Below, piece by piece: positions 9,324-53,719 of a stretch of 53,719 bases of DNA. A model generated the notes under the pieces. The model had not been told where the DNA came from. It did not search any database and worked only from the letters and a program-made list of their open reading frames with translations. Each line of letters opens with the position of its first letter. Position 1 is the stretch's first letter. This stretch comes from an uncultured Clostridia bacterium (GTDB lineage: Bacteria > Bacillota > Clostridia > Oscillospirales > UBA644), in NCBI GenBank assembly GCA_947305805.1, contig CAMZEM010000003.1, positions 1 to 53,719 on the forward strand. The letters are read 5' to 3'. The translations under genes were made by a program, and so were the position numbers.

Positions 9324-10942
<1,619 letters not shown>

Positions 10943-50102: not shown

Positions 50103-51575
50103 ATGACACTGTCAAAAATCGCCGAAATTTTGTCGGAAAATAAATTATTACAAAATTCCACGCCAGAACAAAGCCGTGATTTATCACTTACGGGGAAAAT
50201 TTCATGCGACTCGCGAAACGTAGAAAAAAACTCCCTCTTTTTTGTTAAAGGCGTTAATTTCAAACGCGAATTTCTGCTTTCCGCAATCGAAAAAGGGGCT
50301 GGGGCATACGTTTCGGAAAAGGACCTTGAAGCTGATATTCCGCTTTTACTCGTTTCCGACGTACGCAAAGCCATGTCCGCCGTCGCGCGTGCAGTTTACG
50401 GTGATTTTTCAGAGAGCTTTCCGCTTATCGGAATAACGGGGACGAAGGGCAAAACTTCAACTCTTTATATGCTTGAAAGCATTCTGAGAGAAAAATACGG
50501 CAAAACAGGCATAATTTCCACAAACGAAGCGAGATGCGGAGAAAAAACGTGGCAAAAGACGGGCACAACGCCCGAAGCGCTCGAGCTTTTTTCCATTCTC
50601 GACGGTTTCAGACGGGAAAACGCGGGGGCGGCGGTTATGGAAGTGTCGTCGCAGGCGCTGAAATACGACCGTGTAAGCGGACTTACGTTTTCCGTCGGCG
50701 CATTTTTAAATCTTTCGCCAGACCATATAAGCCCGACGGAGCATTCCTCTTTCGAAGACTACAAAGAGGCGAAAAAGAAGCTTTTTTCGCTCTGCAAAAA
50801 AGCGGTTTTTAATCTTGACGGCGAGTATTCAATAGAATTTCTCGCTTCCGCAAAGTCCGCCGAAACGGTTACGTTTTCTCTTACGCCCGCGGGAGATATT
50901 TACGCTTACGGAATATCGCAGGACAGATACGGCTCGTCGTTTTCGATAGGCGGAAAGATAACCGCTGAAAATGTCCGTATAAATATGCCCGGCAGATTTA
51001 ACGTTTCAAACGCTCTTTGCGCCGCGGCGTGCGCATTTGCCGTCGGGATTTCGCCCGAAGATATCCGTGCGGGTCTTGAAAAGGCCTCGGCGGGCGGACG
51101 CCTTGAAATATACGAAAAAAACGGAATTACGGTGCTTGTTGACTACGCTCACAACAAATCGTCTTTTGAAGCGCTTTTTGAATACGCAAAAACGTTCTAT
51201 CCAAACTCGAAAATAATCTTCCTTTTCGGCTGCATAGGAGACAGAGCGCTTGACCGCCGCGCGGAAATTCCCGAAGTTGCGGCAAAAAACGCCGATTTTA
51301 TCGTTTACACAACCGACGACCCCGGGACCGAAACGCCCGAAAAGATTTTTAAGGAGATAGAGCCCGAATTTAAAAAGCATAAAACGCCTTACACGTTTAT
51401 TGAGGACAGGCAGAAAGCCGTTGATTTTGCCATCGAAACCGCCAAAAACGGCGATCTCGTTATTCTTGCCGGAAAAGGCGGAGAGACCACACAGCTTGTA
51501 AACGGCAGATACGTTCCCTATATCGGCGATATGCCCGCCGCGAAAGCGAAACTCGGACAGAGGGAAACAGAATGA
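50103..51575 (+). CDS. murE: UDP-MurNAc-tripeptide synthetase, probably L-Lys type
   Basis: GITGTKGKT, MEVSS, NLSPDHISPTEH, VDYAHN, DDPG and LAGKG. Confidence 0.9.
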   Translation: MTLSKIAEILSENKLLQNSTPEQSRDLSLTGKISCDSRNVEKNSLFFVKGVNFKREFLLSAIEKGAGAYVSEKDLEADIPLLLVSDVRKAMSAVARAVYGDFSESFPLIGITGTKGKTSTLYMLESILREKYGKTGIISTNEARCGEKTWQKTGTTPEALELFSILDGFRRENAGAAVMEVSSQALKYDRVSGLTFSVGAFLNLSPDHISPTEHSSFEDYKEAKKKLFSLCKKAVFNLDGEYSIEFLASAKSAETVTFSLTPAGDIYAYGISQDRYGSSFSIGGKITAENVRINMPGRFNVSNALCAAACAFAVGISPEDIRAGLEKASAGGRLEIYEKNGITVLVDYAHNKSSFEALFEYAKTFYPNSKIIFLFGCIGDRALDRRAEIPEVAAKNADFIVYTTDDPGTETPEKIFKEIEPEFKKHKTPYTFIEDRQKAVDFAIETAKNGDLVILAGKGGETTQLVNGRYVPYIGDMPAAKAKLGQRETE

Positions 51576-51870
51576 AACGCGAATAAAAACGGCTGATAGA
51601 AGAAAAAACATCTGAATCCGCCAAGATTATAATTCCGTACGCGACGCGAATATTTACAGAAAAAAAGACCGTGCTTTAGGTAGTAAAATACGTCTGTTCG
51701 GATTTTTCCATATTTCATTAATTAAAAACTTGACAACAAAATAATAGGTTATGCTGAAAAGGGAAAAATAAAGGAACAAGGTACATCAGACATTATAAGA
51801 GCAACGATGAGTACATTATAGTGCTCATAGATTGCGATTAATGCGCACATCTTGATGTTGGCGATAATAT

Positions 51871-51910
51871 ATTTGCGGGACTGTCCAGTGAACAGTCCCG
51901 CAAATCTTTA
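51871..51910 (+). terminator. Strong hairpin, terminator-like
   Basis: atttgcgggactgt / acagtcccgcaaat perfect 14-bp stem followed by ctttat. Confidence 0.7.
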
Positions 51911-51914
51911 TGTA

Positions 51915-52072
51915 ACGTGAAAACTGAAAAAAGTAGTTTGCTTGTCAGCTAATTCAGTTGTCACGTATGCAGGGTCAAGGGATGCAGGCCATTGTCCGGG
52001 TGCCGGGGTGAAACTTCCGGCGCGGGTCGAGGGTAAGACCCCGCCCAGTTAAGTGATGGGTATCGTCACTTA
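51915..52072. other. Array of stem-loops; unassigned structured RNA or mobile-element remnant
   Basis: Four further hairpins within about 160 nt (see findings). Confidence 0.4.
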
Positions 52073-52118
52073 GATTATATAAATTCGTTTGTCCGGCAAA
52101 AAAAATTAAACTTCGGAC

Positions 52119-52147
52119 TTGACTTGTAAGCCGTTTTGTGATATTAT
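52119..52147 (+). promoter_or_regulatory. Sigma-A promoter of the metF-like/etf operon
   Basis: TTGACT, 17 bp, TATTAT with extended TG. Confidence 0.75.
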
Positions 52148-52191
52148 ACCTATAAATCCGATAGGTCAAATAGGTAATAAGAGAGGTAAAA

Positions 52192-52998
52192 ATGGAAAGA
52201 CACAAAATCAAACAGGGCTTTCACGTTGAGATCATTCCGCCTAAACAGGACTCTGTTAAGCTAGAAGAAGATCTTGCTTTGTTTGCCTCAAAGTTTGAAA
52301 GGATCATGGCAAGCGGGTTTACCGCATCCATAACGGACAACGCCATGGGACTTCTGGCATTTCAGGGGCACGAGTGTATCGAAGAACTGGGGCTCATCCC
52401 GCGCCCCGGACAGGTTTTGATACATTTAAATACGTTCCATACTAAACAGGCGCTGTGCGGGATACTCGATTCATGCGAGAGGCTCGGCATAAAGTCGGTC
52501 TTAGCGATAAGCGGAGACGGATCTCCGCGTCTGCCGAAGCTGAAGCCGAAAGACGTTGAGGCGGAGGGAACCGCGTCAGTCACGTCGGTAGAGCTTACGC
52601 GGTTCATACGTAAACATTATCCGGAGTTTACCGTCGGTGTGGCGTTCAACCCGTACGAGCCGGAGGAGCACGAGTTTGAAAAACTGAAAAGAAAGCTTGA
52701 CGCCGGCGCTTCTTTCGTCATAACGCAGCCGATAATACAGCAAAACAAAGTAACGGACAGACTTTTAAGCGAATATCCCGGCCTGCCCGTAATCGTTGAA
52801 GCGTGGATGTCAAAAAAGCTGTATCTGTTATCGGACGTCGTAGGTTATCCGATACCGGAAGACGCGGAGTTCGATCCGATAGAAACCCTGAAAAAGCTGA
52901 AAGAGCTTTATCCCTGCTGCGGCTTGTATCTTTCGCTCCTCGGGTTCAAAACGCAGTATGAAACAATAGAACAATTGGCGAAAGGGGACGAAAAATGA
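52192..52998 (+). CDS. Methylenetetrahydrofolate reductase-like flavoprotein (MetF family)
   Basis: VEIIPPK, ITDN, HLN, LAISGD and KLKRKLDAGASFVITQ. Confidence 0.8.
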   Translation: MERHKIKQGFHVEIIPPKQDSVKLEEDLALFASKFERIMASGFTASITDNAMGLLAFQGHECIEELGLIPRPGQVLIHLNTFHTKQALCGILDSCERLGIKSVLAISGDGSPRLPKLKPKDVEAEGTASVTSVELTRFIRKHYPEFTVGVAFNPYEPEEHEFEKLKRKLDAGASFVITQPIIQQNKVTDRLLSEYPGLPVIVEAWMSKKLYLLSDVVGYPIPEDAEFDPIETLKKLKELYPCCGLYLSLLGFKTQYETIEQLAKGDEK

Positions 52999-53719
52999 AA
53001 ATAGTCGTATGCATAAAACAAGTACCCTCTACCACGGATGCAAAAATCGACCCGGAGACCAAAAGGATAATAAGAGAGGGAACGAAAGCGGTTATGAATC
53101 CTTTTGATCTTTATGCCGTTGAGGAAGCGGTGCGCATAAAAGAACTGCTCGGCGGGGAAGTCACGGCGCTTTCAATGGGGCCGGAGAGCGCAAAAATGTC
53201 TTTGATAGAAGCGCTTTCCATGGGCGCGGATAAAGCCGTGTTGCTGTGCGACAGAGCGTTTGCCGGATCCGACACGTGGGCGACGAGCTACGCGCTTGCA
53301 AAAGCTATTGAAAAAATCGGCGGCGTCGATCTTGTGATCTGCGGCAAACAGGCCGTTGACGGAGATACGGCGCAGGTCGGTCCGGGCATCGCCGCAAAGC
53401 TCGATATAATACAGGCGGCAAACGTATCAAAGGTCGAAGAAGTCTCGGATGACGTCATAACGGTAAGCAGAATGAACGAGACCGGCTTTGATCTTTTAAA
53501 GCTCAGACTTCCCGCGCTCATCACGGTCATAAAAGACATAAACGAGCCGCGCATACCCACCTTGAAAAACGCACGCAAAGCGAGAAATACGGAAATCCCT
53601 ATATGGAAACCGGACGATATAGGCGCGGAGGCGGATAAAATAGGCTTGAACGCCTCTCCTACGCGCGTTGTCAAAACAGAGCCGCCGGCGACGAGGAACA
53701 CCGTCACGAAGAAGATAGA
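52995..53719 (+). CDS. etfB: Electron transfer flavoprotein beta subunit (3' end outside window)
   Basis: MKIVVCIKQVP, MNPFDLYAVEEA, GSDTWAT, CGKQAVDGDTAQVGP, EPRIP and SPTRV. Missing from the ORF track because there is no stop in the window. Confidence 0.95.
   Translation, partial: MKIVVCIKQVPSTTDAKIDPETKRIIREGTKAVMNPFDLYAVEEAVRIKELLGGEVTALSMGPESAKMSLIEALSMGADKAVLLCDRAFAGSDTWATSYALAKAIEKIGGVDLVICGKQAVDGDTAQVGPGIAAKLDIIQAANVSKVEEVSDDVITVSRMNETGFDLLKLRLPALITVIKDINEPRIPTLKNARKARNTEIPIWKPDDIGAEADKIGLNASPTRVVKTEPPATRNTVTKKI

Follow-up and report, generated by a model that had tools for sequence, protein, structure and literature searches.

The 53,719-nt stretch of DNA analysed here (the window) makes up an entire contig (C3) of the 1.92-Mb, 169-contig genome of an uncultured Clostridia bacterium, estimated to be 91% complete. 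It breaks off inside an operon that combines a divergent relative of methylene-tetrahydrofolate (methylene-THF) reductase, here termed MetFL, with the subunits EtfB and EtfA of an electron-transferring flavoprotein (ETF) and with a methyltransferase (MT2). A first-pass annotation, made from the sequence alone, had described a 268-aa MetF-like open reading frame (ORF) at 52192-52998 that overlaps etfB by ATGA, and had proposed the ETF as its redox partner. The ORF is real and matches the Pfam methylene-THF reductase (MTHFR) family PF02219, and the proposed partnership is supported by conserved linkage, by two kinds of gene fusion, by the presence of a single ETF in the genome and by the bifurcating type of that ETF. 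The features of the locus are listed below; coordinates with the prefix L003 lie on a second contig of the same genome.

51871-51905, + strand: terminator-like hairpin, with a 14-pair stem (7 G-C pairs) followed by a T-rich tail
52119-52147, + strand: sigma-70-like promoter of the metFL operon (TTGACT, 17 nt, TG-TATTAT; 10/12 matches, extended -10 TG)
52180-52186, + strand: ribosome-binding site of metFL, AGAGAGG, located by sequence inspection 5 nt 5' of the ATG at 52192
52192-52998, + strand: metFL, ORF for a 268-aa divergent MTHFR-fold protein with a Pfam MTHFR match
52995-53719, + strand: etfB, first 241 of 262 codons (Pfam ETF, E=2e-45); the remainder is on contig C81 (L003:1-116)
L003:133-1152, outside the window: etfA, 339 aa, ORF with its own ribosome-binding site
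L003:1166-1975, outside the window: methyl-THF:corrinoid methyltransferase, 269 aa, pterin-binding, ORF with its own ribosome-binding site
near L003:2100, outside the window: terminator-like hairpin 3' of the methyltransferase gene

The stop codon of metFL (TGA, 52996-52998) and the start codon of etfB (ATG, 52995-52997) share the sequence ATGA. Upstream of the hairpin at 51871-51905 lies a gene for a MurE-like ligase, whose transcription unit the hairpin would close; since it and the promoter both precede metFL, the gene heads its own operon, as the first-pass annotation had it. The promoter stretch is the sole upstream part conserved in the closest relative (locus L007; 80% over 81 nt). The window ends within etfB, and its last 55 bases (53665-53719) are bases 1-55 of contig C81, the only other contig that contains this 55-base word. 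A single shared word of this kind is typical of a de Bruijn graph break, here one that splits the operon between contigs. Joining C3 to C81 restores a complete 262-aa EtfB, of which residues 2-260 align with LctB and residues 1-262 with 4kpu_B, and gives the order metFL, etfB, etfA, methyltransferase; the join is supported by close relatives that carry the identical four-gene order. Among the genes that the first-pass annotation thought worth looking for beyond position 53719, etfA and then a methyl-THF:corrinoid methyltransferase are present, and an acyl-CoA or lactate dehydrogenase is not.

With respect to regulation, the region 51500-52300 upstream of and into metFL has no Rfam match to a riboswitch or leader at E<=1. 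A G+C-rich stretch of about 110 nt (51965-52075), which sits between the upstream terminator and the operon promoter and likewise has no Rfam match, was considered as a leader and dropped: it folds no better than shuffled sequences (z -1.4, -0.9), is not conserved even in a 90%-identical relative, and lies upstream of the promoter. Base composition gave no signal of horizontal transfer, the operon having an unremarkable 49% G+C in a genome of 45%.

MetFL is a divergent MTHFR-fold protein

The match of MetFL to PF02219 (54.4 bits, cut-off 24) covers residues 7-185 only, and the protein scores below all NCBIfam MTHFR equivalog cut-offs (for TIGR00676, 45.2 bits vs. 293.7). Its AF2 model (pLDDT 87, pTM 0.86) is a TIM barrel (beta8-alpha8), for which the top 22 Foldseek matches are all MTHFR or MTHFR-like, the best being Thermus MTHFR (TM 0.69, 23% identity); by sequence profile the best PDB match has E=1e-9. 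Aligning MetFL with E. coli MetF pairs Glu13 with E28, Asp109 (of SGD) with D120 and Gln179 (of TQ) with Q183, residues that we take to have the catalytic roles in the E. coli enzyme, and all three are invariant in 16 members of the MetFL family. MetFL is therefore a divergent TIM barrel of the MTHFR superfamily that keeps the catalytic Glu, Asp and Gln. The same alignment agrees with the first-pass annotation in placing a Ser at the Arg of the E. coli LRGD motif and in showing a shortened and divergent C-terminal third. The E. coli-type LRGD/VTYG motifs are missing as such, with SGD in place of RGD and TDN in place of TYG, and it is with the MetVF-type MetF proteins of two carrier genomes (L105, L106), not with the E. 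coli type, that MetFL shares TDN, SGD and NPF/Y. The Arg-to-Ser change is better read as an anaerobe-type motif of the putative flavin site than as a lesion. Across the 16 members, at 62-85% identity, the blocks EIxPPK, TDNAMG, HLN, SGDGSxRLP, VTSVEL, AFNPYEP, RKxxxG, TQP and KLxLLSD are invariant, as is the K/R-K-x-D-A-G flavin region across the family; the HLN, SGD and KRKxDAGA stretches suggest a predicted flavin site.

MetFL and its relatives form a compact subfamily, with 21 clusters below 1e-30 among 1.84 billion representative proteins, and ordinary MTHFRs appear in that search only above ~1e-8. Profile comparison did not single out a nearest MTHFR branch: the MetFL profile aligns with the MetVF type at an hhalign E of 1.7e-10 (31% identity over the C-terminal 147 columns), but profile-profile scores to the MetVF-type and E. 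coli-type branches are near-equal and equally remote (E ~1e-10), and only the motifs lean towards the MetVF type. S6MTHFR chains are not among the PDB profile matches of the family at E<=0.01. The first-pass annotation had seen no metV upstream of metFL, and the MetV family PF12225 indeed has no match on any contig of the genome. That the search works is shown by 3 of 24 carrier genomes, in which it detects MetV, each time beside a second, ordinary MetF of the MetVF type and never beside MetFL; the other 21 have none. MetFL is itself the sole PF02219 match in its own genome.

Such distant scores could mean that MetFL is not a methylene-THF reductase but acts on another pterin or flavin substrate, or serves as a non-catalytic folate-binding subunit. 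The confined Pfam match, the scores far under every equivalog cut-off and the remodelled C-terminal third would all fit this, and so would the occurrence, among the fold matches, of a 5-methyl-THF-binding MTHFR-like protein without known function from C. thermocellum. Against it stand the invariance of the catalytic residues and of the flavin region, neighbouring genes whose products make or use methyl-THF and methylene-THF, and the fact that 12 of the 24 carriers, among them two acetyl-CoA synthase-bearing Treponema metagenome-assembled genomes (MAGs), have MetFL as their sole MTHFR. We consider a function other than that of an MTHFR very unlikely. The C. thermocellum protein itself, Cthe_2304 (PDB 3ijd, fold match ranks 14 and 21), has an MTHFR-like fold with two 5-methyl-THF molecules bound and represents another orphan MTHFR-like lineage in cellulolytic clostridia.

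Linkage of MetFL to EtfB and EtfA

Loci encoding MetFL were collected by a back-translated pattern search with one genome per species (80 loci), and one more from Clostridium thermosuccinogenes-type genomes brought the set to 81. Among the carriers is a cultured species, Pseudoclostridium thermosuccinogenes (L004), whose metFL-etfB-etfA trio is 66% identical to that of the window genome. Neighbours were mapped by tblastn; 74 loci have at least 500 bp of room for etfB, and 68 have at least 1600 bp for etfA. The neighbourhood, whose conservation the first-pass annotation had proposed to survey, is nearly constant, with EtfB encoded directly downstream of MetFL in 73 of the 74 loci and EtfA next in 67 of the 68. 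Record titles assign most of the carriers to uncultured Clostridia of rumen or digester origin, and the set also includes Oscillospiraceae, termite-gut Treponema, Atribacterota, Limnochordia, an Erysipelotrichaceae MAG and a Deltaproteobacteria MAG.

Gene fusions tie the proteins together more closely still. Searching with MetFL and EtfB joined end to end as the query yielded 12 clusters of MetFL::EtfB fusions (525-542 aa, 97-100% coverage). About 35 clusters have MTHFR, ETF and ETF_alpha domains, and their sequences show the arrangement EtfA::MetFL, which is the opposite order with the other subunit; one of these clusters represents 372 sequences. Three loci from independent assemblies contain genes whose translations are identical to such fusion proteins. 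Because the fusions come in two independent topologies, they argue strongly, in the Rosetta-stone sense, that MetFL functions in physical association with EtfAB. A 735-aa protein (P0283) with MTHFR, ETF and Pterin_bind domains was considered as a triple fusion and not counted, because it contains stretches that are out of frame, the mark of a faulty assembly or a frameshift; it resembles what reading through a frameshifted MT2-MetFL-EtfB operon would give. As a separate observation, in Firmicutes bacterium ADurb.Bin193 (locus L033; G004:C12:73288-74103 on the - strand and 75239-75781 on the + strand) an E. coli-type MetF divergently adjoins an MT2-MetFL-EtfB-EtfA operon, which places two kinds of MTHFR within 2 kb.

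Most clostridial bifurcating ETFs serve Bcd or Ldh, and 9 of the 24 carriers encode acyl-CoA dehydrogenase/FAD-oxidase enzymes somewhere, so that the adjacency could in principle be coincidental and the ETF could serve an acyl-CoA or lactate dehydrogenase encoded elsewhere. However, the operon ETF is the only ETF in its own genome, in which, at 91% completeness, no homologue of Acyl-CoA_dh_1 or FAD-oxidase_C is found, and 14 other carriers are likewise without both families (15 of 24 in all). Given also the linkage in all but one of the loci with room and the two fusion kinds, we regard coincidence as extremely improbable. These results contradict the counter-case set out in the first-pass annotation, in which the linkage is not conserved and the ETF belongs to a downstream acyl-CoA or lactate dehydrogenase.

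The ETF itself closely resembles those of known bifurcating complexes. The best PDB matches of EtfB are LctB (7qh2_B, 215 bits), CarD (6fah), 5ol2_B, 7koe_A and 4kpu_B, all within 205-215 bits, compared with ~110 bits for the human and 89 for the Paracoccus canonical ETF. For EtfA the scores are 220-306 bits to bifurcating and ~130 to canonical ETFs; the ferredoxin domain at the N-terminus of CarE and LctC is missing from it, and its alignment with LctC begins at LctC residue 66. The EtfB motif to which the first-pass annotation had drawn attention, GKQAVDGDTAQVGP, is present and includes the diagnostic Gly (G123 in VDGDTAQVGP). This Gly (Gly123 in A. fermentans numbering) is invariant in bifurcating ETFs, where it leaves room for a second FAD in EtfB, and is replaced by a bulky residue in a canonical clostridial-type ETF, according to a 2025 study (PMC12630350). 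Both the Gly and DGDTAQVG are kept in all 77 partner EtfBs examined. By sequence type, the ETF is a two-FAD, bifurcating (group 2) ETF, and it is very probably the redox partner of MetFL.

Partnership, which the linkage and fusions support, is not the same as bifurcation. EtfAB could be an NADH input module only, passing two electrons from NADH to MetFL with neither bifurcation nor ferredoxin, much as RnfC2 does for MetVF in Acetobacterium woodii. There is precedent for a non-bifurcating, NADH-dependent MTHFR with an added NADH module (type III, PMC8760232), and an ETF can work canonically in anaerobes (PMC12630350). What speaks against a mere input module is that every EtfB partner retains DGDTAQVG and the Gly that allows the second FAD, that the nearest solved relatives are all bifurcating and score about twice as high as canonical ETFs, and that known bifurcating EtfAB complexes are tightly coupled. 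Moreover, methyl-THF oxidation with NAD+ alone is endergonic (-200 vs. -320 mV, PMC5861303), yet most carriers have no acetyl-CoA synthase and look like methyl oxidisers. We therefore consider an input module rather unlikely, while bifurcation with ferredoxin by MetFL-EtfAB is plausible and unproven, with chances perhaps slightly better than even.

One-carbon genes around MetFL and in its genome

The operon methyltransferase passes the NCBIfam model for methyl-THF:corrinoid methyltransferases (291 bits, cut-off 259). Its best PDB matches are 4o0q, 4o1e and 4o1f at 251 bits (vs. 130 for acetogen MeTr and 65 for MetH), which we take to be the MT2 of a Desulfitobacterium hafniense O-demethylase. 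A 2026 paper treats 4O1E and 4O1F as the methyl-THF-/THF-bound reference for the corrinoid-to-THF transferase of a demethylating system (PMC13222342). In sequence, then, the operon enzyme is closest to the O-demethylase type and not to MetH. One-carbon genes also recur around MetFL elsewhere: within 7 kb, the 81 loci encode a pterin-binding methyltransferase (60 loci), formyl-THF ligase (Fhs, 23), a formate/nitrite-family transporter (15), FolD (5), FchA (4) and a corrinoid protein (4), identities that Pfam confirmed, adding the corrinoid activase RACo in Atribacterota loci. Fused loci have UroD-family methyltransferases, corrinoid proteins, MFS transporters, a MetH-type reactivation domain and RACo as neighbours. 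The module is embedded among genes that make methyl-THF from methyl-corrinoid and carry methylene-THF to formate. Around one EtfA::MetFL gene (L107:1-11499) lie three UroD genes, a corrinoid protein, a MetH-type reactivation domain, two MFS/sugar transporters and rhaM (rhamnose mutarotase), a context that hints at methylated sugars, besides aromatic methyl ethers, as possible substrates.

The genome of the window holds all parts of a corrinoid methyltransferase system, namely MT1 candidates of the UroD family, a corrinoid protein, MT2 and an activase. About 17 UroD-family (PF01208) paralogues are present (for example C67:625-1725, C47:3543-4571, C15:14924-16093, C78:5510-6508, C17:13416-14492 and C17:15922-17061), the best of which resemble MtaA/CmuA corrinoid methyltransferases but score below all equivalog cut-offs. 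An attempt to read their substrates from operon context was given up, as each gene stands by itself amid genes for housekeeping or sugar use and no substrate could be assigned. The single MtgC/MtbC-like corrinoid protein is encoded at C116:3147-3842 (- strand); on its 5.3-kb contig, which has no methyltransferase gene, it adjoins a 597-aa ORF that by eye, without a family scan, is GH35-type beta-galactosidase-like. The operon transferase is the only methyl-THF:corrinoid transferase homologue in the genome (tblastn, two queries). A RACo-like activase (C54:7194-8741, - strand) has an N-terminal 2Fe-2S domain and an ASKHA domain; its gene is directly downstream of rnfB and rnfA (C54:8899-9792 and 9832-10416), as if co-transcribed with the genes of the Rnf complex. 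Fhs, FolD and pyruvate:ferredoxin oxidoreductase (PFOR) are present, as are two stand-alone homocysteine S-methyltransferase-domain proteins. Neither acetyl-CoA synthase nor MttB was found in this genome.

This inventory also bears on the possibility that the operon is anabolic housekeeping, making methyl-THF for methionine via a split MetH composed of homocysteine-binding, corrinoid and pterin-binding proteins, with the ETF as local electron donor. In its favour, MetFL is the only MTHFR in the genome, which also has the two homocysteine S-methyltransferase-domain proteins, the one corrinoid protein and the one methyl-THF:corrinoid transferase homologue. However, MetFL is missing from one same-genus genome and from six other genomes of the same family, and in a sample of 151 genomes from the order it occurs in just two, which belong to different families (149 lack it). 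Half of the carriers also retain a more ordinary enzyme: besides MetFL, 12 of 24 hold an ordinary MetF, a MetVF pair or a 600-aa ORF sized like the bifunctional homocysteine-methyltransferase/MTHFR. Elsewhere the context is catabolic (Fhs, FchA, FolD, formate transporter, UroD-type methyltransferases, MFS transporters, RACo), and the methyltransferase is nearest the O-demethylase type rather than MetH. A purely anabolic operon thus appears unlikely, although anabolic and catabolic roles are compatible and not exclusive. The MetFL module is accessory and patchily distributed, not housekeeping, and its patchiness suggests lateral spread among rumen Clostridia. Acetyl-CoA synthase occurs in 4 of the 24 carrier genomes, including both Treponema MAGs.

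Proposed reaction and its meaning

Taken together, the gene content makes it likely that metFL-etfB-etfA-mt2 encodes a three-subunit, ETF-dependent methylene-THF reductase/methyl-THF dehydrogenase, together with a methyltransferase that links methyl-THF to a corrinoid protein. MetFL would take the place held by Bcd, CarC or Ldh in known EtfAB complexes, with electrons passing between the MetFL flavin and the alpha-FAD of EtfA, and the beta-FAD of EtfB coupling to NAD(H) and ferredoxin. The overall equation proposed is 2 NADH + Fd(ox) + CH2-THF <-> 2 NAD+ + Fd(red) + CH3-THF. Since the CH2-/CH3-THF couple (-200 mV) is close to pyruvate/lactate (-190 mV; PMC5861303), the proposed chemistry, with MetFL in the dehydrogenase position, would be a direct analogue of that of confurcating Ldh-EtfAB, which by this analogy solves for lactate the problem that methyl-THF oxidation with NAD+ would pose.

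The closest known system is LctBCD, the Ldh-EtfAB complex of A. woodii (7qh2, PMC9232219), which also combines a bifurcating-type EtfAB with a flavoprotein dehydrogenase. Among solved structures, LctB matches this EtfB best, and the reaction of the complex is of the kind proposed here (substrate + reduced ferredoxin + 2 NAD+ <-> product + ferredoxin + 2 NADH). Unlike in LctBCD, the partner is an MTHFR-fold TIM barrel and not an FAD-oxidase-type Ldh, and EtfA has no ferredoxin domain such as that of LctC. In this last respect EtfA resembles Bcd-EtfAB (C. difficile 5ol2, A. fermentans 4kpu) and EtfABCX (T. maritima 7koe), which together with CarCDE (6fah) have the same type of ETF (205-306 bits) and a dehydrogenase gene that adjoins etfBA, as metFL does. 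Their high-potential acceptor is an enoyl-CoA or quinone, whereas here it would be methylene-THF, and the partner family is unrelated. MetVF-type MTHFRs of types II-IV (PMC8760232, PMC8515935) catalyse the very reaction proposed for MetFL, also in anaerobic one-carbon metabolism, and both they and MetFL need an added electron-transfer module; theirs is MetV alone, MetV with RnfC2 or MetV with HdrABC-MvhD, whereas that of MetFL would be EtfAB. S6MTHFR (type 4, Sphingobium lignivorans SYK-6, PMC11868366), encoded beside a methyl-THF-forming demethylation enzyme, would work in the oxidative direction, as proposed for MetFL, but is stand-alone, aerobic and associated with LigM-type, corrinoid-independent demethylases, whereas MetFL is tied to EtfAB and to corrinoid-dependent transfer. 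Finally, the three-component corrinoid O-demethylase systems (MT1, corrinoid protein, MT2, with RACo) include the closest relatives of the operon MT2 (4o0q/4o1e/4o1f), and the other three parts are in the genome of the window; the described systems feed methyl-THF to the Wood-Ljungdahl pathway via MetVF-type enzymes, whereas here MT2 shares an operon with MetFL-EtfAB in a genome where acetyl-CoA synthase is not found.

The organism is probably a non-acetogenic fermenter of rumen origin. With no acetyl-CoA synthase found, many MT1-like genes, an MT2 of the O-demethylase type, and PFOR and Rnf, the likeliest flow runs from methylated substrate to formate. MtaA/UroD-type methyltransferases would move methyl groups from methylated substrates onto the single corrinoid protein, from which the operon methyltransferase would hand them to THF. 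MetFL-EtfAB would then oxidise methyl-THF to methylene-THF, spending reduced ferredoxin derived from PFOR, and FolD and formyl-THF ligase would carry methylene-THF via formyl-THF to formate and ATP; the reverse run of MetFL-EtfAB may supply methyl-THF for methionine. For this organism the oxidative direction is our best guess, at about an even chance. In the acetyl-CoA synthase-bearing Treponema, MetFL-EtfAB would run reductively.

Several points weigh against this proposal. The operon order was pieced together across a contig break. Flavin binding by MetFL is predicted from conserved motifs, and FAD-free MTHFRs exist and occur among its fold matches. One locus with downstream room, and only this one, has no ETF: in a Clostridiaceae MAG (L058:6944-10755; genome G023), the genes after MetFL encode Fhs and a formate transporter, and no ETF gene occurs within 7 kb; that genome also encodes an ordinary MetF, acyl-CoA dehydrogenase and FAD-oxidase genes. 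Our search for other ETF partners covered the acyl-CoA dehydrogenase and FAD-oxidase families, and a FixCX/ETF-QO-type acceptor was not searched for. The sequence type of an ETF is no proof of bifurcation; a close ETF relative in Fusobacterium acts canonically, although it lacks the diagnostic Gly that is kept here (PMC12630350). Nor can the direction of the reaction be read from genomes: MetFL is the only MTHFR both here and in the two acetyl-CoA synthase-bearing Treponema MAGs, where it would have to work as a reductase.

Coupling of EtfAB to an MTHFR has been considered before, for C. ljungdahlii, where no genomic linkage was found, and was set aside because each etfAB had its own dehydrogenase (PMC8515935). 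Four MTHFR types are recognised in acetogens, none with Etf, and ferredoxin reduction by NADH and methylene-THF "has never been detected" (PMC8760232); a paper of July 2026 still cites these four types. A 2025 phylogeny divides MTHFRs into eukaryotic, bacterial, Fe-S-subunit and S6MTHFR types (PMC11868366), and the Etf partners named in reviews of bifurcating enzymes are Bcd, CarC, Ldh and FixCX. The first-pass annotation knew of no characterised MetF-ETF complex, and the full-text literature that we searched likewise contains no description of a MetF-Etf operon or complex, which does not imply absence from all literature. Whether MetFL-EtfAB constitutes both a fifth methylene-THF reductase type and a new EtfAB-based bifurcating/confurcating class, with methyl oxidation here and a ferredoxin-reducing reductase in Treponema, we regard as evenly poised.

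For the energetics of the Wood-Ljungdahl pathway, as for those of anaerobic methyl-group oxidation, the chief question is which electron partner MTHFR uses. The metFL-etfBA family supplies a genomic MTHFR-Etf linkage that is conserved across phyla and sealed by fusions, in an assembly of known parts in a new combination, and these linkages and fusions make the EtfAB-MTHFR hypothesis testable with three recombinant proteins. If the proposal is true, in the acetyl-CoA synthase-bearing Treponema of the termite gut MetFL-EtfAB would be the energy-conserving, ferredoxin-reducing reductase that has been postulated, and never found, for acetogens. Non-acetogenic fermenters would be able to oxidise the methyl groups of methylated plant compounds to formate, with reduced ferredoxin overcoming the uphill step, and the MetFL family would be the marker of a non-acetogenic pathway, widespread among bacteria of the rumen, the termite gut, digesters and the subsurface, that turns methylated compounds into formate and bears on the supply of formate and hydrogen to methanogens.

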